The translations under genes and the position numbers were made by a program. A stretch of 64,000 nt of DNA from Minisyncoccia bacterium (lineage in GTDB: Bacteria; Patescibacteriota; Minisyncoccia; Phycocordibacterales; Phycocordibacteraceae): NCBI GenBank assembly GCA_049305795.1, contig JBAQPM010000002.1:20316-84315 (forward strand), in the 5' to 3' direction. Within the stretch, counting starts at the first letter, position 1, and each line of letters begins with the position of its first letter. Shown here piece by piece: positions 7,146-35,977 of this stretch. The notes beneath the pieces were generated by a model. It searched no databases, had not been told where the DNA came from, and was given only the letters and a program-made list of their open reading frames with translations.

Positions 7146-7994
7146 ATGAAAACGTACCGCCCAACTTCAAAGAGTCGCCGCCACATGACCACGCTTCCGT
7201 ACCGGGAGCTCCTTTCTGGTGATCGCCCAATGAAGCAGCTCATGAAGGGTAAGAAGAATCAGGGTGGCCGCAACGGTTTCGGTCGCATCACCACTCGTCA
7301 CCAGGGTGGAGGCCACAAGCAAAAGCTCCGTGATGTTGATTTTGCGTACAATAAAAAAGGCATTCCTGCCAAAGTTGAAACGATTGAATACGATCCGTTC
7401 CGTTCTGCATTCATTGCGCGCGCACTCTATGCCGATGGTGCTCGTCGCTATGTTGTTGCGCCGAAGGACATGAAGGTCGGCGACACTTTCCTTGTTGCCG
7501 AAGATGCGCCTATTAAAAGCGGTAACCGTGTGCCACTTGGGAAAATCCCTGTCGGTACCTTTATCTACGGCATTGAACTTAAACCAGGCGCAGGTGCTAT
7601 TCTCGCGCGTTCCGCAGGAAACTATGCTGAAGTAGTCGCCCACGATGCCGGATATGCCCAGGTAAAACTTCCTTCCACTGAAATCAGAAAGGTTTCAGAC
7701 CTTTGTTGGGCAAGCATCGGAGCAGTAGGAAACGAAGAATACAACCTCGTAAACATCGGTAAAGCTGGCCGTTCTCGTTGGCTCGGTATTCGCCCAACGG
7801 TTCGTGGTACGGTTATGAACCCTGTTGATCACCCACACGGAGGTGGTGAAGGTAAACAAGGTCGCGGACTTCGCCGCGCCAAGACCAAATGGGGCAAGCC
7901 TTCAGGCAAGGGTCAAAAGACACGCACGCCAAAGAAATACTCAAACGTTTTCATTGTCTCGCGCCGTCGCGTTGGCAAGAAAAAGAAAGGTTAA
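7146..7994 (+). CDS. rplB: 50S ribosomal protein L2
   Basis: GRNGFGRITTRHQGGGHKQKLR...HPHGGGEGK motifs of L2. Confidence 0.95.
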   Translation: MKTYRPTSKSRRHMTTLPYRELLSGDRPMKQLMKGKKNQGGRNGFGRITTRHQGGGHKQKLRDVDFAYNKKGIPAKVETIEYDPFRSAFIARALYADGARRYVVAPKDMKVGDTFLVAEDAPIKSGNRVPLGKIPVGTFIYGIELKPGAGAILARSAGNYAEVVAHDAGYAQVKLPSTEIRKVSDLCWASIGAVGNEEYNLVNIGKAGRSRWLGIRPTVRGTVMNPVDHPHGGGEGKQGRGLRRAKTKWGKPSGKGQKTRTPKKYSNVFIVSRRRVGKKKKG

Positions 7995-14132: not shown

Positions 14133-14525
14133 ATGATTACTGACCGCGTTGGTGATTTTATTATCCGCCTCAAGAATGCAGGGGCAATTCAAAAGGAGAC
14201 CGTCTCCCTCCCTTTTTCAAAGCATCTTGCCCAAATTGCCATGAAGCTTATGGCGCTCGGCTTTGTTGCGTCCGTTGAGACAAAAGATAAGCCAACTAAA
14301 ACACTTGTCGTGACCCTTGCTTACGATGCACAGGGCAACCCTAAAATTCACGGCGTAAAGCGCACCAGCAAACCAGGTCGACGTCTCTATGTTGCTGCAC
14401 GCGAAGCGCATCAGGTAAAAAACAGTGAAGGTGCTCGCATTATTTCGACACCAAAAGGCATTCTTTCTGATGCTGAAGCGCGAAAAGTTCGTGTTGGCGG
14501 AGAAGATCTCTTCCAAATCTGGTAA
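14133..14525 (+). CDS. rpsH: 30S ribosomal protein S8
   Basis: MITDRVGDFIIRLKNAG...ISTPKGILSD canonical S8. Confidence 0.95.
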   Translation: MITDRVGDFIIRLKNAGAIQKETVSLPFSKHLAQIAMKLMALGFVASVETKDKPTKTLVVTLAYDAQGNPKIHGVKRTSKPGRRLYVAAREAHQVKNSEGARIISTPKGILSDAEARKVRVGGEDLFQIW

Positions 14526-20451: not shown

Positions 20452-21827
20452 AGATAACCTTTTGCGGGGGCGCAGGCACGGTTACTGGTTCAAATTTTTT
20501 GGTCGAAGGAGAAAAAGGACGCATCCTCATTGATTGTGGGATTGAGCAGGGAAGAGATTTTTGCGAAGAATGTGTGTATGGACCTTTCCCATATGACCCA
20601 AAAACCATTGATGCGCTTGTCGTAACGCATGCCCACCTTGACCATGTGGGTCGTATTCCAAAACTCGTTCGCGATGGGTTTAAGGGTAAGGCATACATGA
20701 CGCCGCCAACGCGGGATCTTGCCGAGCTCATTCTTCGCGACAGTGTTGGCATTTTGGGAGCTGAAGCAAAAAAGCATGGACTCCCTCCTTTGTACGAGGG
20801 AAAAGATGTCGATGCTTTTTTCTCACTCGTAGAAACCATTTCGTATCACGAAGAAAAAGAAGTTGCGCCAGGTCTTTCAGTGTATCTTCGCAACACCGGA
20901 CATATTTTGGGTTCGGCCAGTGTCCGCATTACCGAATCAAATGGCACCACGGCAGTGTTTACGGGCGATATTGGCAACTCTCCTTCGCCACTTCTTCCTG
21001 ATTGGGAAGCGGTGCCTGACGCCGACGCCCTCATTATGGAAAGCGTCTATGGTGACCGAGCACACCCGCCGGGAGATCACAGGGTTGAACTTTTGAAACA
21101 AACGCTCTTAGAGGGAATTAAAAGAGGAGGAACCATTCTCATTCCCGCCTTTTCGATGGAACGCACGCAGCTCATGTTGTATGAACTTTCCAATTTCTTT
21201 TCCGAGGGTACGCTTCCGAAAGTTCCGGTCTTTCTTGATTCGCCGCTTGCGATACAGGTGACAAAAGTATACGAAAAATGGGGAAAGGAATATTTTAAAA
21301 CTGAAACTGAAAGAGAGATGATTCACGAGAGAAGTGTTTTTGAATTTCCTTTTCTCACTAAAACGGAGTCTCGCGAAGATGCCGAGGTTATCAAAAAAAC
21401 GCCTGGTCCAAAAATAATTATTGCCGGAGCGGGGATGAGTCACGGCGGCCGCATTGGTGGACACGAAATTCAACATCTTCCTGATCCTAAATCGACTCTC
21501 ATTTTGGTTGGGTACCAAGCTCCGGGAAGCCCGGGGCGCATGATGCAAGACGGCGCACCTAAGGTGCGCATTAATGGACAGGAGGTCCTTCTTCGCGCGA
21601 AGGTTGTAAACCTTGAGGGTTGGTCAGCACATGCCGATAGAGATGAGCTCCTGCAGTTCGCAGAAGCGGCGCTTCCGCGACCTAAAGCCATCTTCACCGC
21701 CCTTGGTGAACCTTCCTCTGCGAGGTTTCTTGCTCAGCGCATCCATGACTATATTGGAGGGAACGCCATTGTTCCGCATCAGGGAGAAGTATGGGAGGTT
21801 ACAAAGGAATCGGTAAAACGCGTGTAA
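20448..21827 (+). CDS. Beta-CASP family metallo-beta-lactamase ribonuclease (CPSF/RNase J-like)
   Basis: HAHLDHVG motif (HxHxDH), later H and D motifs, about 459 aa typical of beta-CASP RNA-processing MBLs. Confidence 0.75.
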   Translation: MKITFCGGAGTVTGSNFLVEGEKGRILIDCGIEQGRDFCEECVYGPFPYDPKTIDALVVTHAHLDHVGRIPKLVRDGFKGKAYMTPPTRDLAELILRDSVGILGAEAKKHGLPPLYEGKDVDAFFSLVETISYHEEKEVAPGLSVYLRNTGHILGSASVRITESNGTTAVFTGDIGNSPSPLLPDWEAVPDADALIMESVYGDRAHPPGDHRVELLKQTLLEGIKRGGTILIPAFSMERTQLMLYELSNFFSEGTLPKVPVFLDSPLAIQVTKVYEKWGKEYFKTETEREMIHERSVFEFPFLTKTESREDAEVIKKTPGPKIIIAGAGMSHGGRIGGHEIQHLPDPKSTLILVGYQAPGSPGRMMQDGAPKVRINGQEVLLRAKVVNLEGWSAHADRDELLQFAEAALPRPKAIFTALGEPSSARFLAQRIHDYIGGNAIVPHQGEVWEVTKESVKRV

Positions 21828-24721: not shown

Positions 24722-24947
24722 GGTTCTATCCTTGTTTGTTACTTCTGAAGGGGAGAGTACCAAAAATAAAAGTAAAAGCCCACCGGAGTGAGCTTTGCTG
24801 CAGGGGCGTGTACCAATCGTTCGACTGTGGCCACCAGTCAAATTTTCGGCACGGATAACCGCTTGTCCGGCATGCTGATCCAAACTTCGCACGCCCCCGC
24901 GCTTGTAATATATAGGAGGATGGGTCGGGTATCAAATTCAAAACAAA

Positions 24948-24980
24948 ACCGCCTCAGGGCGGTTTTGTTTTATGTTTTGT
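24948..24980. terminator. Hairpin AAACAAAACCGCC-TCAGG-GCGGTTTTGTTT insulating the DUF4406 gene from the island
   Basis: 12-bp stem flanked by A/T runs, read directly. Confidence 0.4.
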
Positions 24981-25311
24981 GGCGCCACAATAAGAATTGC
25001 AGCATCCTACAAAAATATAGTCGCCGAGTACGGCTCGTTATTTTTGTGGAAGTGGCTTCATGAGGTTAGAACCTCATTACTGGAAAGCAGAGCCTCACAT
25101 TTCCTACAAGTAGTGGACGAGTGGTAGGGGAGACGAAAGCAGGAAAGCCAATCGGTGTAATCAAAAAGAGGACAGATGTTCGGAGGGATTAGAACCTCCC
25201 ATCACCGAACCCTTTATCAAAAAGCGGCTACTTCATCTCAGGAGTCCTGGTACAAGAGCTCGGATTCTCGCTACCCAAACGTGAAAATGTCATCAGTGAT
25301 AAAATTAGTGA

Positions 25312-27174
25312 ATGGCGGACGAATCGAGCAAAACTCCTATTGAGGAACTGTTTATATCCCCGAAAGACGGGTCCTTTTATAACTATGTACTGGTCTTGGT
25401 CCGTCCCAAGGGGATCTCCCGATTTGCAGACCCGCTTTGGATAGCACATAACCAGTTTCTCAAGTCAGAAAAACTTGAACTCACAGAAGATTTGCTCACA
25501 GAAGCACTTTCCCTCGTCTTCAATCTTAGTGAGCATCGAGCCAATAGGGAATACCATCCATTTCCATTCGGTAAACCATTGAGTGAAGGGAAACGAGCCA
25601 CAGTCGCCCTTCTAACAACGAATAATCAAACGACTTTAGCAAAGCTTGTCGAAGACGTTTTCCCTGATGAGATTGTTGAGGGTCTAGAGGCATCAACTCC
25701 ACTTGTAGATTTCCTTAAAGAGCTTACGGGTCGGTATTTTCAAGCACGACTGGATTTCAATAAGACACCCGGAAGACTTTTGTACAAAATGCCTCGGTTT
25801 GAGGTCTTCGAAGTACTGAAAGATGACACCTACGGATTGTGCGGATTCAATATGTATTTTTCTAACGGTACGCACGCTAACTACGAACGGACAGGTGAAC
25901 ATACGACAGGAATCAACGTACTTACCGACTACCCAATAAACTACAATGTCGGCCTCATAGATGCCCTGAAACGTGAATGGATGGTAGGCACTCAACGTGC
26001 CTATGAAGTAGGTATAGCAGGGAGATATAACGACTGGGGAGAATGGATGCCTCTGATGTATTCAGGAGACAACCATCAGATGTTTCTTGCTGAAAGCGAA
26101 CGAATGGCAGGAGATGACCGTCAGGTTGCGGGGATACTTTTCTATATCATGTGTACTGGACATCGGATCATAGAATTCGCTGTTAAAACTCCTATTGAGC
26201 TTCCTAACAAGCACTTCTCACTTGGAAGCAGAATGCATATGTATAAGTGCGAGCCACTCGACCAGACAAGCCATAGTGCTAGAGACTTTCACATTTATGA
26301 CGGCCACTACGAACTTGATGACTTAGACCCAAAGACCATCAGAAACGCAATCGCTTCAATCAATGTTGGCTTAAATCGAATGGCCTTTTCCTACGACTCC
26401 AGTGTTGATTGGTGTATTAAGTATTCAATCTATAAAGAAAGTGGCCATTCCAAACCAACTCCCACCAAGGAGCAATTGGATGTGCTTAATTCGATGCTCG
26501 TAGATTTTCCAGATACAGAGGATGCAATTGTGCTGGATATTTGTATCGATTGGTTTCATCGAGGAGAATTAGCTAGAAGGAAGAACGTCTTTCTTGCCTT
26601 TCTTTCTTATTACATCGCCCTAGAGAGTGTTGCTACCGCCATCGCTGACGGAGACGCTGACCTTGGCTTGGGATACGTCAAAGAAACAAAAGTTGAACGC
26701 AAAACCCGTGTTGTTTCTGAGATACAAAAACTCCATGACGAGCTTTACCAGTCTGACCCAGAGGAATTCATTAGGCGAGCCTACTTTGAGCAAGTTGTTG
26801 GCTTAAAAGTGAAGACTCGAAAAGTTATGGAGTTGGTATTTGGTACTGACCATGAGTATATAAAAGCTCTCTTTGAGAAAGTAGACGGCAGAGAATCTAT
26901 ATATGACTTACGAGGAGAACTTGCTCATGGAGGGATTACGTTGCTAGACCCAAGCCATCAAAAAATGATTAGGGAACGACTCCCTGAACTTGCAGAGATA
27001 GTAAGGGAGTTTGTTAGGAGAATCATCGTAAAGCCTGGCCAGGAACTTCCAAGATGGACAGGAGGAAGTACGATTTCTATGTTTCCGAGCGACCCTCGAG
27101 ACATGATGATTGCTTCAGACGATAGGATGTTCAGACATCTCGACTGGAAGATAAAGCCTGAATGGTTTGACTAA
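25312..27174 (+). CDS. Large hypothetical protein (620 aa) with C-terminal HEPN-like R-x4-H motif
   Basis: No recognisable N-terminal domain; C-terminal DLRGELAHGG fits R-x4-H within a predicted helical region; island cargo. Confidence 0.45.
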   Translation: MADESSKTPIEELFISPKDGSFYNYVLVLVRPKGISRFADPLWIAHNQFLKSEKLELTEDLLTEALSLVFNLSEHRANREYHPFPFGKPLSEGKRATVALLTTNNQTTLAKLVEDVFPDEIVEGLEASTPLVDFLKELTGRYFQARLDFNKTPGRLLYKMPRFEVFEVLKDDTYGLCGFNMYFSNGTHANYERTGEHTTGINVLTDYPINYNVGLIDALKREWMVGTQRAYEVGIAGRYNDWGEWMPLMYSGDNHQMFLAESERMAGDDRQVAGILFYIMCTGHRIIEFAVKTPIELPNKHFSLGSRMHMYKCEPLDQTSHSARDFHIYDGHYELDDLDPKTIRNAIASINVGLNRMAFSYDSSVDWCIKYSIYKESGHSKPTPTKEQLDVLNSMLVDFPDTEDAIVLDICIDWFHRGELARRKNVFLAFLSYYIALESVATAIADGDADLGLGYVKETKVERKTRVVSEIQKLHDELYQSDPEEFIRRAYFEQVVGLKVKTRKVMELVFGTDHEYIKALFEKVDGRESIYDLRGELAHGGITLLDPSHQKMIRERLPELAEIVREFVRRIIVKPGQELPRWTGGSTISMFPSDPRDMMIASDDRMFRHLDWKIKPEWFD

Positions 27175-27205
27175 AAGATTTAAGAAGTGATTTCTTCTTC
27201 AAACA

Positions 27206-27757
27206 CTACTCTGATGATGTAGATTGTCCGGGATTCTTAAAAGCTTCTTTAATGTCTCCAATAAATAGAACTTGGCCAATGCCGCCTTTTAAGGAGTGTC
27301 CCTTATAAATAAGCTGAGAATACCTCCCATGTGCTACGTGATTCCTGTAACCCTGAATCACTCTCATAATCTTCAATACAGGATCCTTTTTCCGTTGATA
27401 AAGTTCTTCAATGGATGTGATTTTAGTCCCAAAAGTTAAATTACCAACAAGAACTTTTGCATAAACTTTCTGGCAGCCGTGCATAACCATTAGGTCAATA
27501 ATTAACTCGTCAGCCAGCTTTTCAGTAAAGAAAGCTACCCAAAATACGAAATCCATTGCTGACGTATCATCCTTACTAATTCCATACTCTCCCTCAACCA
27601 TTTCCCTAACAGGAAACTTAAGTCCTTCAAACGTAATTCCCTTTTTCAAAGCCGCTGCAACAAGGTCATCTGCGCTCCCTTCAATTAATCTCTCGGCCTC
27701 TTGAAGAGAGAATCCATCTTCGCTTTCTGGCGACTCTTCCTTAATTGGGTCATTCAT
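27206..27757 (-). CDS. HEPN-like protein (R-x4-H motif, DUF4145-like)
   Basis: ATG at 27757; YRNHVAHGRY motif near the C-terminus; last gene of a four-gene minus-strand operon. Confidence 0.45.
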   Translation of the reverse strand: MNDPIKEESPESEDGFSLQEAERLIEGSADDLVAAALKKGITFEGLKFPVREMVEGEYGISKDDTSAMDFVFWVAFFTEKLADELIIDLMVMHGCQKVYAKVLVGNLTFGTKITSIEELYQRKKDPVLKIMRVIQGYRNHVAHGRYSQLIYKGHSLKGGIGQVLFIGDIKEAFKNPGQSTSSE

Positions 27758-27776
27758 GTTTAAAAATCCCACCAAA

Positions 27777-28217
27777 CTAATCCTTTAGCTCACTGACTAT
27801 CCGGTCAAATGCGTCCTGGACATCTATATTGCTCTGCGTGGTGTCTGGGTCATTTGGCCTATCTGTGAATCGGAAGATCGTACCCGAATAGATAGCCTCG
27901 TTAGTCGTAGCATCGAATATCACAAGTTCCTTGTGGGTACCGTTATTTGCTGGGTTCTCGTAAAGCTTTTCCCAGACAGCTACACAACTGTTCCTTTCTT
28001 GGCTGTAGAAAATCTCACTAGGAGTGGTGTCTTCTGTGTTTGGCTCGGCATAGTAAGACTCGATACGATTTGTGGCTTGACCAATAAACTTCGAACACTC
28101 AACCTTCCTTGAAAAGGAGTCGGCTCCGTTTCCAAAAAGTAGAAAACCAATTACAACTAATGCTAAAAGCAACAAAACTCCCAACACCAGATTCAATTTC
28201 TTTGGAGCAATAGTCAT
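27777..28217 (-). CDS. Membrane-anchored secreted hypothetical protein
   Basis: ATG at 28217 (MTIAPKKLNLVLGVLLLLALVVIGFLLF signal anchor), 1 nt after the upstream stop; ORF-track start further upstream is TTG. Confidence 0.4.
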   Translation of the reverse strand: MTIAPKKLNLVLGVLLLLALVVIGFLLFGNGADSFSRKVECSKFIGQATNRIESYYAEPNTEDTTPSEIFYSQERNSCVAVWEKLYENPANNGTHKELVIFDATTNEAIYSGTIFRFTDRPNDPDTTQSNIDVQDAFDRIVSELKD

Positions 28218-28218
28218 A

Positions 28219-28455
28219 CTACGAGCCTGAAAGGGCATACCAGATATGGGCAAAAGAACTGGTACGAGTCTCTGTCGTCGTCAGGCACGATTCCCGTTTC
28301 GTGGCTTCCTCAAATGAGGTTGTTTCAAGACCGCACATACCAACCTGTACGGCGTAATGGTAGTTTTCTAGTCGAACAATTGTTGCCCCAAACCAAATAA
28401 CTATGAGAACCAGAACAACTACCAGAGCTGAAAGTGTTTTCTCGCGTCTTGTCAT
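28219..28455 (-). CDS. Small membrane protein (78 aa)
   Basis: TM helix LSALVVVLVLIVIWFGATIV; translationally coupled between the XRE gene and downstream genes. Confidence 0.35.
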   Translation of the reverse strand: MTRREKTLSALVVVLVLIVIWFGATIVRLENYHYAVQVGMCGLETTSFEEATKRESCLTTTETRTSSFAHIWYALSGS

Positions 28456-28456
28456 G

Positions 28457-28678
28457 TTATTTCAAGAAATAGTTAATCTCCTTTTTATATATCTTCGCAA
28501 AACGCTGGAGTTCAATGACATCGACTCTCTGCTGACCTGATTCAACATTTGAGATATGGGACTGAGGACGACCTATCTTCTTAGCTGCTTGAACCTGAGT
28601 TAAACCAGCCTCTAAACGAGCCGCCTTAAGTCTTTCCACAAAGATGGCATATTCTTTCGTCTGGTTCGACTTCTTCAT
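28457..28678 (-). CDS. XRE-family (Cro/CI-type) helix-turn-helix transcriptional regulator
   Basis: LKAARLEAGLTQVQAAKKIGRPQSHISNVESGQQRV canonical HTH_XRE. Confidence 0.75.
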   Translation of the reverse strand: MKKSNQTKEYAIFVERLKAARLEAGLTQVQAAKKIGRPQSHISNVESGQQRVDVIELQRFAKIYKKEINYFLK

Positions 28679-28705
28679 ACACTAAAGGGTGTATCCAAGA
28701 AGTCA

Positions 28706-28724
28706 ATATCCAAACTTTGGATAT
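28706..28724. promoter_or_regulatory. Perfect 19-bp palindromic operator ATATCCAAA-C-TTTGGATAT in the divergent promoter region, with an extra TATCCAAGA half-site at 28692
   Basis: Read directly; located 28 nt upstream of the XRE start on the minus strand and 19 nt before the plus-strand gene. Confidence 0.45.
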
Positions 28725-28742
28725 TATTATATATTCTTCCAT

Positions 28743-29240
28743 ATGAGTACAACACCCGTTCCAGACAAGAAGACCTTTACGAAAGGGGAGGGCATTACCG
28801 CAATTATTGTTGTCTTAATTTTCTGCTTAGTCTTTTGGCAAGCAATTACATCAGTACCGAAGTCTGATACTTCAGTCCCCGTAGTAGCTCAGCCCGTTTC
28901 TACCCAGAACATTGTCGTCACGAGCCAGATAGTCAAAGCTGTTGGAGGGAAGTACCGATACTTCTTCGATATTAGGAACGAGGACAATAAGCCGTTTTCT
29001 GGCGAGGTAGGTATCGAGCTTGATAAGTCGAATGGTGAACACGTTTACGACGATTCCTTTTCGACGAATCAACCTATCCAGCCCGGAGTCGGTACTAGCC
29101 AGTTTGTTGAGACATACACCGGACCTGTCTCGGTTCATGGTTCGGACGGAGTACAGACATTCAAGTACACGGTAAAGAGTGGAGGTTCCGTGATTAAGAC
29201 AGGACAAGGGACGATATCTACCAAGCTCGAAAGCTATTAA
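28743..29240 (+). CDS. Membrane-anchored secreted hypothetical protein (165 aa)
   Basis: ATG at 28743; MSTTPVPDKK...ITAIIVVLIFCLVFWQAI signal anchor; divergent from the XRE gene. Confidence 0.45.
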   Translation: MSTTPVPDKKTFTKGEGITAIIVVLIFCLVFWQAITSVPKSDTSVPVVAQPVSTQNIVVTSQIVKAVGGKYRYFFDIRNEDNKPFSGEVGIELDKSNGEHVYDDSFSTNQPIQPGVGTSQFVETYTGPVSVHGSDGVQTFKYTVKSGGSVIKTGQGTISTKLESY

Positions 29241-29664
29241 GGCCTCGCGTGGGTCCCCACGTTCCTACGAGAGAAGCTTTGATGAGTAAGAGGTAATAAT
29301 CCTTATCGGTTAAGAGGAAACAGGTCGTCCAGGCCTGTTTTTCATTTTGAGGGTGTGGATAACCACTCTGAGTACCTTACCTACTTCATTGAGTGTTTAA
29401 GCCATTTTCTAAAATTGAATCTTCCATGTTTCGCCATGTGCGTCTATATATTTCCATACATTTCTACGTGTACGTCAAGAGAATACGATGCTAGTTTCAG
29501 AATTAGAGATTTCGAATACGAAGTCTCTGCTTATTAACGGCTTGACGGCTTAAAAGATAAAAACGTATGGAAACAGATGATATTCAGATTGAAGTAAACA
29601 ACGAAGAGGAAGTGACAGGGGATGTGTTCAACTTCGAACCTTTCTAGCCTTGCTTCACTAGATT

Positions 29665-29868
29665 ATGAAAACTACTCGTGATCCTCCAGTTCTTCGCTGG
29701 AGAGAAGATAGCCTCAAGGATTTCCAAAGCATCTATCAAGAAGTGTATGGGGAATTACTAGAAGAGGAGGGGCTGGAGCAAGCGGCTCGGTATCTTATCA
29801 ATCTCTACACCAGCACCTACGGTAAACCACCATTAATAGAAAAACACTATCCCTATGACCACATCTGA
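29665..29868 (+). CDS. Hypothetical protein (67 aa)
   Basis: ORF only; first of three overlapping small genes resembling a phage early region. Confidence 0.3.
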   Translation: MKTTRDPPVLRWREDSLKDFQSIYQEVYGELLEEEGLEQAARYLINLYTSTYGKPPLIEKHYPYDHI

Positions 29869-30127
29869 CGCGAAAGACCTTCTAACCAGCCAACTAGAGT
29901 TCATAAACGAACTTGTTATGGATGATGGTCGAAACGAAGCCATGTACGTCTACTCACTGGATGCAATAGAGCAGATGAGGTACGACAACTTCGAAACCAT
30001 CAGAGTACATCTCAATGCTCTACAGAGAATGCTTTCAGAGAAGCAACGCGAAATCGTTATTGCTCGTCGCCTAGTCGCTTTCATTAGCACGGGCAAAGAG
30101 ACTCCTGTCTATGAATACGCCGCTTAG
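29855..30127 (+). CDS. Hypothetical protein (90 aa)
   Basis: Overlaps neighbours by 14 and 17 nt. Confidence 0.3.
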   Translation: MTTSDAKDLLTSQLEFINELVMDDGRNEAMYVYSLDAIEQMRYDNFETIRVHLNALQRMLSEKQREIVIARRLVAFISTGKETPVYEYAA

Positions 30128-30524
30128 ATTCCCAGGATTCGACACGAGATACAACGGAAACTACGAGAGAAACTTCTTCATGTATCCAAACATCTTGTCA
30201 GAATACTGGTGTCAGTTGTCTGGCTCTGAGCAAAAGGTTCTCGATTTTATTCTCCGACAAACAATTGGGTGGAGGAAATCCTACGACAGGATTGCCCTTA
30301 GTCAGTTTGTAAATGGAGTGGGGGAGAGCAATCGAGGAACGGGTCTCTCAACCTCACAGGTCCATAGAGCAATTAAATCTCTGGAAGAGAAAGGATTCAT
30401 TGAAGTAAAAAGAAACAAGAATCGTCCAAGCACCTTTAGCCTTGTTCTGGTTCCGGAAGAGGAAGAAGTGAAAGCTGAAGACTTCAAGGCTTTCGATGCA
30501 TTCAAAGATGTCCGTTGGATATAA
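30111..30524 (+). CDS. Winged-helix replication-initiator or replisome-organizer-like protein (phage/plasmid type)
   Basis: SGSEQKVLDFILRQTIGW...GLSTSQVHRAIKSLEEKGFIEVKR resembles DnaD/phage replication protein N-terminal wHTH; acidic tail. Confidence 0.4.
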   Translation: MNTPLRFPGFDTRYNGNYERNFFMYPNILSEYWCQLSGSEQKVLDFILRQTIGWRKSYDRIALSQFVNGVGESNRGTGLSTSQVHRAIKSLEEKGFIEVKRNKNRPSTFSLVLVPEEEEVKAEDFKAFDAFKDVRWI

Positions 30525-30772
30525 AAACTATGTTCATTCTGGAATAAACCATATCCATCAAGAACATGTCCTCCAATCAAGACGACTATGAATCATTATC
30601 AAAACTAGCAACACAATATAGATACATAACAAAAGACAAGACAACATTCTGACTTTCTGACGAAAGTCATTCCACTGGAAATTAAATTAAGTCTGGTACC
30701 AGAAGTTCTATACATATTGAACGTGAACTATATGTACTTTTGGAACGTGCCTAATACGATTTTATTACCAGC

Positions 30773-30982
30773 ATGAACAGCATAGAAGACCTCAGGGACT
30801 ACGTTATCGCAGATGTCATCCGCCAGGTTGAGTCCATGTCGCGGGAGGAGTTAGTGCAGACACTCGTATTGATTTGCACCACGCCTCTCGAAAAGATGGA
30901 CGCAAACGAATTGCTGGAATTCAGACAGACCTACTCAAAACTTTGGCCATTAAAATCACATGCACAGGGAAGATCAGGATAA
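30773..30982 (+). CDS. Hypothetical protein (69 aa)
   Basis: ORF only; overlaps the recombinase start by 23 nt. Confidence 0.25.
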   Translation: MNSIEDLRDYVIADVIRQVESMSREELVQTLVLICTTPLEKMDANELLEFRQTYSKLWPLKSHAQGRSG

Positions 30983-32726
30983 AGGGCTTAAATATGTTCT
31001 CTATGCCAGACGTTCGATAAAAGCGAACAGGACTGAGGAGGATAGAGGGGTCCCCTCGATTATGTCTCAGCTAACTGAGGTGAGGGAGATTGCAGACCAG
31101 AGAGGGTTAAAAATCGTTAAGGAATTCACGGAGACAGAATCAGCTAGTGAACCCTTTCAACGGCCAGAGTTTACGGAGATGATTGAATTCATCAAGGCAG
31201 GAAAAGCTAATGCCATCCTCTGCTTTAAAATGGACCGACTGGCACGCAACTCGGTAGACGAGGGCATAATCAAGCATCTGCTCCAGAAGGGAGTCATCCA
31301 GAACATTCGGTCTTCTGACCGAAGCTGGTACTCGGACGACCATACGCTTATTTGGTCTGTGGAGTTTGGTACATCAACGCAGTATTCCCGCGACCTCAAG
31401 AAGCATATTAAGAGAGGACAGATGGAGGCACTACGTCGTGGCTTCAGGCCGTGCCTCGCACCAATTGGCTACAAGAACACAAAGTACCGAGAGAAGGGGA
31501 AACCAGAGGTGTGTGAGATAGATGAGCACAATGCTGTGCTCATAAAGAAGATATTCAAACTCGTACTTTCACGGCAGTACACACCCTTTCAGGTATATAT
31601 GCTTTCGGTAAAGGAATGGGGAATGAGAGCGCGTAAGACGAGCAGAAACCCGAATGGAAGGCCGTTGTCTTTGCATGGCTTCTATAACATTCTCAACAAC
31701 TCCTTTTATTACGGTGAGTTCACCTGGTCCGTTAGGAATGGAGAGAAGGATGCCGAAATCATCACCTATCAAGGTACTCACGAACCGCTAATCAGTCGTG
31801 CTGAATTCGATGAGGTACAGAGGCTGCTTGGAAAGAAAGGGAAGCCTCGTAATATCACTCATGTTCATACCTACACAGGACTCATGCGTTGTGGTGCATG
31901 TGGGGCGCGTATCACTTGCGAGAAGAAGATAAAGACGCAGATGAATGGGAATGTTCACGAATACTCCTACTACCGATGCACAGGACAGATAAACAAGGAC
32001 TGCAAACAGAAGTCTGTGACGGAAAAGCAACTGGAAGTCGTATTCACTGACTTCCTATCCTCAATCCGAATAGACGCTCGGTTCCACGAGTGGGCTATGA
32101 CTGAACTCAAAAGCGAATATGAAAAGGAATCCAATGATAAGGACTCTATCCTCTACAAGCAGGAACGAGCACTCAAGGCCACACAGCAGCAGCTAACGAC
32201 CCTCTTTGAGATGAGGCTGGCAAGTGAGATTGAGGGTGATGAGTATAAGGAACGTAGAGCAACCCTTGAAGCAGAGGAGCGAAGACTGAAAGTTGAAATC
32301 GAGTCAGTGGACCAGCGATTCAAGACCTGGATAGATGATGCAGAACGCCTTATGACTTTTGCTGAACGAGCGACAGAACAGTTCCAAAAGGGAGGACAAC
32401 AGGAGAAGCGAGCAATTATTGCAGCTCTTGGAGATGAGCATGTTCTCGACCAGGGAATACTTACTATGAATACGGAAAAACCAGTACAGGTTCTACTGGA
32501 AGCAAGCTCACTCGGTATTCCATTAGAACCTCCAAATAAGGAGGAAGAATATACACAAAAAGACCCTTTCGGGTCCTTTCATGAAACTAGGTGGAGGTGG
32601 GGAGAATTGAACCCCCGTCCGAATCTTTCACAAGAAAATGTTTCTACGACGCATAGCCGGTATTGGTGTTTCGGCAGGAATATAAGAACACCGGCAAAAG
32701 CATTCCTACCTGATCCCGGGGTTTAA
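30960..32726 (+). CDS. Large serine recombinase (integrase); C-terminal ~45 codons read antisense through the 3' end of tmRNA
   Basis: N-terminal resolvase domain with catalytic Ser in YVLYARRS, recombinase domain, CGACGARITC zinc ribbon, coiled-coil region QERALKATQQQLTTLFEM. Confidence 0.85.
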   Translation: MHREDQDKGLKYVLYARRSIKANRTEEDRGVPSIMSQLTEVREIADQRGLKIVKEFTETESASEPFQRPEFTEMIEFIKAGKANAILCFKMDRLARNSVDEGIIKHLLQKGVIQNIRSSDRSWYSDDHTLIWSVEFGTSTQYSRDLKKHIKRGQMEALRRGFRPCLAPIGYKNTKYREKGKPEVCEIDEHNAVLIKKIFKLVLSRQYTPFQVYMLSVKEWGMRARKTSRNPNGRPLSLHGFYNILNNSFYYGEFTWSVRNGEKDAEIITYQGTHEPLISRAEFDEVQRLLGKKGKPRNITHVHTYTGLMRCGACGARITCEKKIKTQMNGNVHEYSYYRCTGQINKDCKQKSVTEKQLEVVFTDFLSSIRIDARFHEWAMTELKSEYEKESNDKDSILYKQERALKATQQQLTTLFEMRLASEIEGDEYKERRATLEAEERRLKVEIESVDQRFKTWIDDAERLMTFAERATEQFQKGGQQEKRAIIAALGDEHVLDQGILTMNTEKPVQVLLEASSLGIPLEPPNKEEEYTQKDPFGSFHETRWRWGELNPRPNLSQENVSTTHSRYWCFGRNIRTPAKAFLPDPGV

Positions 32727-32998
32727 ACGCGGTGCGTGGGAAGTGCACTGCATCGATCTCATAGAAGATTCCGCCCGCTCCTTCCGCTATGAGAGCCGGG
32801 AAGGGCGAACGTCGCTTAGGTGAAAGGTTCTTACGCCTTGACGTAAGCGAACGCGAAATCATTCATACCGAAGTATGGTGACTTCACGCTTGCAAGAGTG
32901 TTCTTGGCAAGTTTAGTGCCTCACGGATTTAGGTGTCGTTGAGGCAAGCACCGCGTCGCGCATTTTCAAGGAACAGACCGTCGAAACCGGTCACCCCC
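32590..32998 (-). ncRNA. ssrA: tmRNA (transfer-messenger RNA)
   Basis: Minus-strand 5' end GGGGGTGACCGGTTTCGACGG and 3' end GGACGGGGGTTCAATTCTCCCCACCTCCACC match the tmRNA tRNA-like domain (compare E. coli GGGGCUGAUUCUGGAUUCGACGG ... GGACGCGGGUUCAACUCCCGCCAGCUCCACCA); adjacent smpB. Confidence 0.8.
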
Positions 32999-33040: not shown

Positions 33041-33490
33041 TCAGACTTTTCTCTTTAGCACGCGTGCCGCCTCTCTCTTTGCGTCCTGACGTTTGAGATC
33101 TTCTCTCCTGTCAGCTTTTCCTTTTCCGCGCACAATGGCCACGCGCACCTTGAGTAGTCTCCCTTTATTATACACCTCAATTGGCACTGTTGTCAAGCCC
33201 TTCTTGGATTCGGCATCTGCAAGCTCCGCTATTTCGCTTTTGTTTAGGAGAAGCCGGCGGTTTCTTGCCGGATCATAGTCTTTTGGCGTATTACTTGCCT
33301 GAAATGGAGGAATGGTGGCGCCCACGAGGTAGGCTTCGCCACCTCGCACGACGATGCGCGAGCCATCAAGTGAGCCTTGTTTATCGCGAAGCGACTTCAC
33401 TTCATAGCCAAAAAGCTCAAGCCCCGCTTCAAATTCCTTGAGGCGTTCAAACTTAAGTCCTGCTTTTTTGTATTCTATGAATGTCCCCAT
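33041..33490 (-). CDS. smpB: SsrA-binding protein SmpB
   Basis: FEAGLELFGYEVKSLRDKQGSLDGS...NRRLLLNKSEI matches SmpB; likely ATG at 33490 (MGTFIEYKK). Confidence 0.85.
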   Translation of the reverse strand: MGTFIEYKKAGLKFERLKEFEAGLELFGYEVKSLRDKQGSLDGSRIVVRGGEAYLVGATIPPFQASNTPKDYDPARNRRLLLNKSEIAELADAESKKGLTTVPIEVYNKGRLLKVRVAIVRGKGKADRREDLKRQDAKREAARVLKRKV

Positions 33491-35807: not shown

Positions 35808-35880
35808 ACCGCCCCTAGCTCAATGGTTAGAGCACCGAGCTTATACCTCGGCGGTTCTTGGTTCGAGTCCAAGGGGGCGG
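35808..35880 (+). tRNA. tRNA with anticodon UAU (predicted tRNA-Ile reading AUA)
   Basis: Cloverleaf folded by hand: acceptor CCGCCCC/GGGGCGG, D-stem GCTC/GAGC, anticodon stem CCGAG/CTCGG with loop CTTATAC, T-arm CTTGG-TTCGAGT-CCAAG, discriminator A; CCA not encoded. Confidence 0.7.
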
Positions 35881-35977
35881 ACTGATATATAGGTTCACTT
35901 TGTAATTTCCTTATCTGTGTGACATAGTGCCGCGAGATTCATTGTAGTGTTCATACTAGACAAGGGAGGGAAAGGTA

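Follow-up and report, generated by a model that had tools for sequence, protein, structure and literature searches.

An integrative island with a large serine integrase at the tmRNA gene of a Patescibacteria bacterium, and an attachment site predicted to lie within its own integrase gene

INTRODUCTION

The serine integrases of temperate phages and of integrative and conjugative elements, such as those of PhiC31, Bxb1, A118 (LI) and TP901-1, feature a coiled coil inserted in the zinc ribbon, and their attachment sites combine a very short core, no long repeats and a 5-bp shift of a half-site motif. Here, we describe an island in a 64,000-nucleotide stretch (hereafter the window) of contig JBAQPM010000002.1 (GenBank assembly GCA_049305795.1) of a Paceibacteria/Minisyncoccia (Patescibacteria) bacterium, in which a large serine integrase (Int, encoded by int) of the same domain order is associated with attachment sites of the same kind at the 3′ end of ssrA, the gene for transfer-messenger RNA (tmRNA). 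Integrases of the PhiC31/Bxb1 type target protein-coding or intergenic sites with an attP of approximately 50 bp, whereas the island and its relatives use the 3′ ends of tmRNA or tRNA genes, have attP within their own integrase open reading frame (ORF) and feature extra conserved copies of GGTTAGAACC at -70 and +140. Target and attP position are what sets it apart from the known serine integrases.

Islands of tyrosine integrases at tmRNA and tRNA genes, together t(m)RNA genes (Islander/TIGER; 'traffic at the tmRNA gene'), have in common with this locus the hotspot, an RNA 3′ end restored by the element, an integrase gene beside the att site, and tandem arrays and remnants at that site. They differ in recombinase family, and neither a displaced gene fragment nor a long direct repeat is present here, which is why detection of the Islander type would miss such islands. 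Among islands with serine integrases, 14 of 297 were located at t(m)RNA genes, a use described as one that "has not been reported previously" and that needs experimental proof (Mageeney et al. 2020, PMC7192596), and the large survey of large serine recombinases (LSRs) by Durrant et al. makes no mention of tRNA or tmRNA (PMC10083194). A search of a paper library for serine recombinases at tRNA genes in the candidate phyla radiation (CPR)/Patescibacteria found nothing.

Integrases of the SSV type, in which the att site lies within the integrase gene, have been described as exclusively archaeal tyrosine enzymes (PMC8371274). These 'suicidal' integrases (SSV1, pTN3, pT26-2) share with the present locus an att site inside int and a gene that is partitioned on integration, but they are archaeal tyrosine recombinases that lose an essential part in the split, whereas the bacterial serine enzyme of the window exchanges only its last 25 codons and keeps its folded body intact; the likeness is partial and Int is not a member of this group. 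The nearest bacterial analogue is the integration-dependent immunity of mycobacteriophages, in which the repressor gene contains attP and loses the sequence for a C-terminal degradation tag on integration (PMC3694055). Like the island, BPs, Brujita and the cluster P phages have attP in a coding sequence, proteins whose C-termini differ between the viral and the prophage form, and a tRNA target, but in these phages a repressor gene, a proteolysis tag and a tyrosine integrase are involved, whereas here it is the gene of the serine integrase itself that is split and the role of the tail is putative.

RESULTS

An island of foreign composition ends at ssrA

The original prediction, made from the DNA sequence alone, had placed an AT-rich integrative island of roughly 7.5 kb at 25000-32998, between a DUF4406 gene and tmRNA. 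This location proved correct but its limits did not, as alignment of related sites mapped the junctions to an island of 7,545 bp (25050-32594). The proposed compositional shift was evident from windowed analyses: the island has a GC content of 43.9% compared with 48.9% for the remainder of the window, which is below all 166 other 7.5-kb windows (mean 48.8%, standard deviation 0.9), and its tetranucleotide distance is 0.31, compared with a maximum of 0.22 elsewhere. Searches with Pfam, PHROGs and NCBIfam also agreed with the suggested lack of ribosomal and metabolic genes, as no housekeeping gene was found in the island. The DUF4406 label of the left-flank gene could not be upheld, given a weak likeness to PF14359 (E = 0.22, 12.4 bits against a cutoff of 22). 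On the other side of the island, where int abuts the attR end, ssrA and smpB adjoin ftsH, and smpB was used as the anchor for picking comparative loci.

The two junctions have only GTGGA in common (25046-25050 and 32591-32595), and there is no displaced ssrA 3′ fragment or long direct repeat anywhere in the window, the left end included. A short shared core without a long repeat is expected because the recombinase is a serine integrase. T-arm-like similarity near 25,064 and 25,186 was considered as a possible tmRNA remnant and rejected, with comparable similarity in 21 of 300 shuffles and no partial Rfam match; it represents the P′ mimic described below and its repeat. We consider it very likely that 25050-32594 is an integrative island that was inserted into the extreme 3′ end of ssrA by its own large serine integrase, where recombination and excision themselves are predicted from sequence comparison.

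Int has the features of a large serine integrase

The identification of the 588-residue product of int as a large serine recombinase was borne out. Serine recombinase profiles match the catalytic domain (PF00239, 6.3e-14, residues 13-120), the Recombinase domain (PF07508, residues 190-291) and the zinc ribbon (PF13408, residues 306-365), and the phrog_95 integrase model matches residues 5-534. In a family alignment, S19 (in YARRS), R17, R93 and R96 are invariant and the zinc-ribbon cysteines C311, C314, C340 and C348 are conserved. An AlphaFold2 model, which is confident to approximately residue 518, shows a coiled coil (residues 373-477) built from antiparallel helices 373-420 and 426-477 with predicted local distance difference test (pLDDT) values of 87-95. 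Sequence identity to solved LSRs is low (13-19%); the best Foldseek matches of this model were att-bound, full-length serine integrases (9y66, 9dxd, 9dxh, PhiC31, Bxb1 and 4KIS; E values from 1e-21 to 1e-12). The closest NCBIfam models, XisF, CcrB and CcrC, scored 100, 80 and 66 bits, which reflects general LSR homology; with equivalog cutoffs of 375-900 bits, Int is not a member of these families. Int has every testable defining feature of large serine integrases and is predicted to catalyse attP × attB integration and, with a recombination directionality factor (RDF), attL × attR excision.

Beyond the folded body, residues 519-545 form a disordered linker whose codons are overprinted with DNA signals, and residues 546-588 are encoded antisense to ssrA. 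The ORF runs through the current ssrA terminator and, with its last 138 nt (46 codons, where about 45 had been proposed), overlaps the tRNA-like 3′ domain of ssrA in antisense.

The detached end of int lies at the far end of the island

We compared Int with homologues of 32-83% identity, all from Patescibacteria metagenomes and metagenome-assembled genomes. Nearly all of these end in "...LWRWGE(S/L)NPRP...", which is the antisense translation of the acceptor strand and T-arm, and a minority end in another conserved tail, "...W K.L..VRTS(L/I)(L/I)E.....FL..VD.W*". The left end of the island encodes this second tail as 25 codons and a stop, and a frame check showed that, read from the shared TGG, these codons would continue the reading frame of Int from W545 in a re-formed attP. 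Therefore, attP lies inside the int ORF, and a circular element would encode an Int of 570 residues. This also accounts for the reading of int into ssrA, since the true last 25 codons are found at the other end of the island: integration would leave them at attL, and the integrated ORF would instead run through 43 ssrA-antisense codons.

Differences between 11 copies of the tail are concentrated at the third codon position (457, compared with 283 and 190 at the other two), the synonymous share of differing codons is 41% compared with 5-7% in the other two frames, and the position of the stop is conserved (W*). Judged by this substitution pattern, the 25-residue tail is real coding sequence. 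In a structural model of the homologue P0040, the native tail (residues 538-565) forms a single helix with pLDDT values of 58-70, and the swapped tail of the window Int is disordered (pLDDT 33-46).

The junctions resemble serine integrase attachment sites

Across 12 aligned sites of the P′ type, conservation begins exactly at GTGG, and the sequences upstream are unrelated save for a hairpin and a T-run. Four occupied sites were informative for the right junction. On its element side, the hairpin GACCCTTTCGGGTC unites the window with L206, and GGCACTTTCGTGCC unites L205 with L014; on its ssrA side, a single host-type sequence is common to L206, L205 and L014 and differs from that of the window. 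These two patterns of similarity change over within GGTGGAGGTG. The predicted junctions are ...CATGAAACTAGGTGG|AAGTGGCTTCATGAGGTTAGAACC... for attP and, in RNA sense, ...TTCAATTCTCCCCACCTCC|ACAAAAATAACGAGCCGTACTCGG... for attB. Partial dyad symmetry of the reconstructed attP (CATGAAAC...GCTTCATG) favours GG as the putative crossover dinucleotide.

It is well established that LSRs distinguish attB from attP half-sites through a 5-bp shift of the zinc-ribbon-domain motif, a rule that reportedly stems from structural work on the LI integrase with attP. Counted from GT|GG, a GAAC motif is found at +15 in ssrA-side (B′) arms with a locatable core and an intact motif (window, L060, L006, L086 and L088), as well as in the B′ arms of L014 and L012 when counted by hand instead of by script. 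In ten intact P′ arms, including that of the window, GAAC is found at +20, which is 5 bp farther from the core than in B′. The P′ copies that depart from this position are decayed or divergent: L004_1018 has AAAC instead, the motif is lost from L004_419, and GAAC stands at +26 in L023. The offset is repeated in two tRNA-Asn islands for which both junctions are available, L117 (10.2 kb; +13 compared with +18) and L162 (7.3 kb; +12 compared with +17). These islands have shared cores of 6-7 nt, and their far ends carry an in-frame "L(D/E)(D/E)VRT" remnant. The window also features exactly three plus-strand copies of TTAGAACC, whose positions relative to the core (-70, +17 and +140) are all at the ends of the island.

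A family of related integrases at t(m)RNA genes

A survey of metagenomes yielded 66 loci with a complete integrase ORF of 33-58% identity. In 40 of these, the ORF overlaps the antisense 3′ end of a t(m)RNA gene called by ARAGORN; the others comprise nine with tRNA-antisense tails, eight with tails of the VRT type and nine with other ends. The targets are tmRNA and tRNA-Asn, Gln, His, Asp, Ser, Glu, Gly, Tyr, Ala and Leu, with tRNA-Pro added by a locus from a viral collection (L173). Of 41 integrated loci, 29 have GGTTAGAACC at 66-68 nt from the 3′ end of the target gene and a further two have it at 65 and 79 nt, a fixed spacing that is independent of the target gene. The corresponding codons are invariantly TTA-GAA ("LEP") in 28 loci, and three loci read the motif in another frame ("VRT"); on these comparisons, the conservation of GGTTAGAACC is a DNA-level constraint. 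There is a large, apparently undescribed clade of Patescibacteria LSRs that is dedicated to t(m)RNA genes and has attP embedded in int.

The closest sister islands, L205 and L206 (Int 83% identical), have the same ssrA-smpB-ftsH context and share a backbone with the window, but their cargo is different: L205 carries an MmeI-type restriction-modification system, a DEAD helicase and T5orf172, and L206 encodes a 1,513-residue AAA_11/12 helicase and a TerB-like protein. Locus L004 carries DarT/Macro, ThiF/Multi_ubiq/BubE and AAA_15/21 genes. As a separate observation, L004 has three matches to LOOT RNA (RF03000; 61-71 bits) at 7428-7543, 14200-14330 and 21016-21122, each of which comes after a cargo module in this array of LSR islands with defence-like cargo; LOOT RNA has no match in the window.

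An intact tmRNA gene with a new terminator

The claim of a tmRNA gene beside the island was fully supported. The RF00023 match spans model positions 1-374, with the tRNA-like domain, tag reading frame and pseudoknots of the model, and lies well above the gathering score of 47 (Table 1). The acceptor strand CACCUCC forms pairs with GGGGGUG at the 5′ end of the same gene, among them a G3:U pair. The closest relative shows a compensatory acceptor pair, and the tag reading frame AKNTLASVKSPYFGMNDFAFAYVKA is kept in relatives. ARAGORN made no call on the window tmRNA, although it does call the tmRNAs of L086 and L088. From these features, the window tmRNA looks functional. Its tag is unusually long, with 25 residues ending in YVKA.

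The element provides the intrinsic terminator that now serves ssrA, as is also the case in relatives. A second, bidirectional terminator hairpin lies on the host side of the left junction, and similar hairpins (AAACCGCC...GGCGGTTT) are found 10-70 nt downstream of ssrA in relatives. This hairpin is probably the original ssrA terminator, moved 7.5 kb away by the insertion. The assignment is only probable because L006, a relative with a similar terminator that was considered as an empty site, is not one: a P′ block 940 bp downstream identifies its insert as a unit without int.

Between the displaced terminator and the left-flank gene, the minus strand of 24775-24935 may encode a small RNA: a promoter-like site (24935-24907, 10 of 12 matches) and a terminator-like hairpin (24796-24775) flank approximately 125 nt of non-coding DNA. 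This region has no Rfam match and no blastn conservation in L006, L008 or L012. Elsewhere in the window, ARAGORN and Rfam identified a tRNA-Ile gene with anticodon TAT (UAU) at 35809-35882, an uncommon bacterial means of reading AUA.

Backbone and cargo genes

The regulatory and replication genes of the original prediction were all recovered (Table 1): an XRE repressor with a palindrome in the adjacent divergent region, a winged-helix gene resembling a replication initiator, and tiny overlapping ORFs. The palindrome, a candidate operator predicted to be bound by the repressor, is unique in the window, where no further copy occurs at up to three mismatches, and only 2 of 100 shuffles gave any match. 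The XRE protein has an 82% identical counterpart in the L014 island, equivalents of the two small ORFs ahead of the RepO-like gene are present in L205 and L206, and the RepO-like gene itself is kept beside int in L004, L205 and L206. The non-coding region between the 165-residue gene and these ORFs is a candidate replication origin or early promoter region, and the 69-residue ORF that overlaps the start of int may encode an RDF or a regulator. These roles of the XRE protein, the RepO-like protein and the 69-residue ORF are putative. The backbone (XRE and operator, small ORFs, RepO-like gene, 69-residue ORF and Int) would control maintenance, replication and excision.

The left part of the island would constitute exchangeable cargo, possibly related to defence. 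The 620-residue gene is assigned to this cargo because a homologue of 89% identity occurs in another genome in a different, mobile or variable context, where its neighbours include NERD, HD and methyltransferase genes but not this LSR. The 620-, 183-, 153-, 78- and 165-residue proteins had no match in Pfam, PHROGs, NCBIfam, PADLOC or PDB sequences. Rx4H motifs in the first two are reminiscent of HEPN nucleases, which offers a lead to a possible function. A 26-nt inverted repeat (81% complementary) links the start region of int (30935-30964) with a site inside the 183-residue cargo gene (27412-27437); its int-proximal arm resembles half of the XRE palindrome (AAACTTTGG), which may be chance or a second regulatory site.

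Table 1. Features of the island and its flanks in window coordinates
Feature	Position	Strand	Details
Bidirectional terminator hairpin, perfect 14-bp stem	24940-24971	.	Host side, 75 nt beyond left junction; z = -7.9
attL core GTGG, left junction	25046-25049	+	Left, host (B arm: weak hairpin and T-run); right, element (P′)
P′ arm with detached last 25 int codons and stop	25050-25127	+	KWLHEVRTSLLESRASHFLQVVDEW and stop; tblastn to native tails of P0040 and P0058
T-arm-like palindrome in P′, ATGAGGT-TAGA-ACCTCAT	25060-25077	.	Contains GTTAGAACC; z = -2.4
Third TTAGAACC copy, non-coding	25189-25196	+	Approximately +140; context GATTAGAACCTCC; kept in relatives' P′ blocks with AAAGCCAAT
Cargo gene, 620 aa	25312-27174	+	No family match; Rx4H (HEPN-like) motif RGELAH at residue 534
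Cargo gene, 183 aa (189 aa from TTG start)	27206-27757	-	No family match; Rx4H motif RNHVAH at residue 144; gene call in L210
Two overlapping small genes, 153 aa and 78 aa	27777-28238, 28219-28455	-	One N-terminal hydrophobic stretch each; no family match
XRE-family HTH repressor, 73 aa	28457-28678	-	Pfam HTH_3 2.5e-12; PHROG repressor families
Perfect 10+10 palindrome AATATCCAAA-C-TTTGGATATT	28706-28726	.	In 64-nt divergent region between XRE and next gene; z = -4.0
165-aa protein	28743-29240	+	One N-terminal hydrophobic stretch; no family match; start from L210 gene call
Non-coding region	29241-29664	.	Terminator-like hairpin; inverted repeat 29446-29466 / 29558-29578
Two overlapping small ORFs, 67 and 90 aa	29665-30127	+	Lead into RepO-like gene; genes in independent contigs
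RepO-like winged-helix protein, 137 aa (phage O N-terminal domain)	30111-30524	+	Phage_rep_O 5.8e-9; phrog_678 6e-15
Conserved 69-aa ORF overlapping int start	30773-30982	+	Homologues 27-81% identical, same position, five related islands
Large serine integrase, integrated-form ORF, 588 aa	30960-32726	+	Resolvase, Recombinase, Zn_ribbon_recom; phrog_95
TTAGAACC motif in Int codons 'LEP'	32523-32530	+	-70 from core
Current ssrA intrinsic terminator	32554-32583	-	From element; antisense inside int codons ~532-541
ssrA (tmRNA), intact, integration target	32589-32998	-	Rfam RF00023, 105 bits, full length
attR core GTGG, right junction	32591-32594	+	tmRNA acceptor C71-C72, discriminator A, first C of terminal CC
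smpB	33041-33490	-	Host gene, 42 nt upstream of ssrA; Pfam SmpB 1.7e-38

Arrays and remnants at the same site in relatives

In L003 and L004, integrases with native tails are followed by more element DNA, which indicates tandem arrangements; other contigs with VRT-tail integrases are less clear, and no circular contig (terminal overlaps) was found among the contigs that carry such integrases. L004 contains four consecutive units of approximately 600 bp, each with a P′ block, one gene, a hairpin and GTGG, and its two most distal P′ copies are decayed, one of them with an in-frame stop. L012 has two units, one with a 3′ remnant of Int. Units of one or a few genes without an integrase between hairpin-GTGG-P′ junctions (L004:419-2320, L006:10891-11833 and L012:10905-15556) are stacked beside ssrA or an LSR island and carry acetyltransferase, NUDIX and GST-like genes, among others, which gives them the look of cassette arrays. 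These arrays may reflect the decay of serial integrations or units mobilised in trans, as in integrons.

Two further observations were made at these loci. L003:131-568 encodes 145 residues that include a Resolvase domain and share 46% identity with the N-terminus of the window Int; this ORF overlaps a full-length LSR immediately downstream and is probably a truncated integrase of an earlier element. In addition, several relatives carry, directly beyond the ssrA terminator and in convergent orientation to ssrA, an inverted ssrA-3′-like sequence (TGGAG[GT]GG...hairpin...AATTGA/GTCGAAC), which is found at L003:2841-3003 and L006:11866-11925, as well as in L007, L083 and L065. The L003 copy could form an acceptor-like stem (5′ GGAGATGG / 3′ CCATCTCC). 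Such sequences may have arisen by inversion, act as decoy att sites or be RNA genes.

DISCUSSION

The comparisons suggest a scheme in which the T-arm DNA of the target gene would be read as a B′ half-site, the P′ arm would act as a shifted T-arm mimic, and the 5-bp offset of GAAC would let the integrase tell attP from attB. Crossover would take place in the 4-nt GTGG at the last bases of the acceptor strand, such that the host keeps a whole, functional tmRNA, and the element would supply a 3′ trailer and a new terminator, both antisense within the last int codons. As the terminator hairpin of the P arm would replace that of the host, the ssrA-proximal junction would again resemble attB, which would explain the tandem units in relatives.

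Several observations weigh against this interpretation. The original prediction had looked to empty sites in related genomes, and, in keeping with an insertion, other related species do have ssrA with no adjoining LSR or P′ block (L007, L009, L011, L015 and L083), but an empty site of the same species was not found: exact look-ups of SmpB and of the left-flank protein gave island-bearing contigs only. The closest relative by SmpB (L006, 79%) carries at the same core a 940-bp unit with a GST-like gene and no int. The predicted attB junction had no match in metagenomes and the predicted attP (28-mer) had none in viral contigs, in collections from which the species is absent, and no far junction was present within the 10-kb flanks of the sister islands L014, L205 and L206. 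The crossover dinucleotide within GTGG may be GT, TG or GG. In addition, the helix predicted for the P0040 tail is of moderate confidence only, and the P′ block is also kept in units without int and must therefore be conserved partly as DNA.

A rival view, which we regard as possible but doubtful, is that neither the read-through nor the tail has meaning at the protein level: the functional Int would end at approximately residue 520-545, the P′ block would be conserved purely as DNA, as a recombination half-site with accessory sites, and the long ORF would be an accident of a lacking stop codon. The predicted disorder of residues 519-588, the DNA-level conservation of GGTTAGAACC, the persistence of P′ blocks beside int-less single-gene units and the free length and sequence of integrated-form tails would all fit, but this view is at odds with the coding substitution pattern and conserved stop of the tail, its predicted helicity in native form, and a tail identity to P0040 (∼56%) that follows the identity of the whole protein (50%), while conservation that reaches 75 bp from the core goes well past a normal LSR half-site. 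It is unlikely that the island is a fixed remnant of an ancient integration, now domesticated cargo that is no longer mobile. The look-ups yielded neither an empty site nor a circular form, both samples that hold the species carry the island, and relatives often have decayed units at this hotspot; however, none of the backbone ORFs is disrupted, Int retains the invariant catalytic residues, the P′ block and tail ORF are undamaged, unlike the decayed distal copies of L004, the composition is still strongly foreign, and the sister islands with 83%-identical Int proteins carry other cargo in other hosts.

We consider it improbable that the locus belongs, as a single unit, to an integron-like platform of cassettes at t(m)RNA genes, in which the LSR would capture and shuffle short units in trans. 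The four single-gene units of L004 with their hairpin-GTGG-P′ junctions, the int-less unit of L006 and the two units of L012 suggest such a platform, yet the window holds a single unit that bears int, the excision of units is without support, and serial integration followed by deletion explains the arrays equally well, with distal copies in decay. PHROG matches to an integrase, a repressor and an O-like replication protein could point to a prophage or its remnant, and the phage-like character first proposed did hold for this regulatory and replication module. It went no further: capsid, tail, terminase and lysis families are absent from the 7.5-kb island (Pfam, PHROGs and NCBIfam) and virion and lysis genes from the sister islands, so the island is not a prophage, and a derivation from one is very improbable. 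An assembly or binning chimera that joined unrelated DNA at ssrA is hardly credible. The window comes from a metagenome-assembled genome and Logan contigs break inside the island and inside ssrA, but the same architecture occurs in many unrelated assemblies, and exact 121-mers across both junctions recur in contigs of two independent sequencing runs, which excludes an assembly artefact.

If the island was inserted by its own Int, as we favour, the exchange of the tail could have consequences for the enzyme; any regulatory effect of this swap, or of the head-on arrangement of int and ssrA, is putative. We tentatively propose, as a hypothesis with less than even prospects, that the exchange of the conserved helical tail for target-encoded residues and the head-on position of int against a strongly transcribed RNA gene would together form an integration-dependent switch of Int activity or stability, and thereby control directionality without or beyond an RDF. 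Under this proposal, Int would be the first bacterial serine counterpart of the integrases with an att site in their own gene, and int-less units would accumulate as integron-like arrays.

Serine integrases have been regarded as essentially avoiding t(m)RNA genes, whereas here a whole clade is found on at least 12 different RNA genes. This calls for a fresh look at why t(m)RNA genes are integration hotspots, as the usual explanation is tied to the mechanics of tyrosine recombinases. The locus would also add a bacterial serine case to the own-gene att integrases, which had been thought to be exclusively archaeal tyrosine enzymes. The 3′ ends of tRNA and tmRNA genes are highly conserved natural landing pads. 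The CPR mobilome has probably been under-counted, since tools that rely on displaced tRNA fragments are blind to such islands, whose relatives in CPR carry restriction-modification systems, helicases, DarTG and other defence-like cargo.

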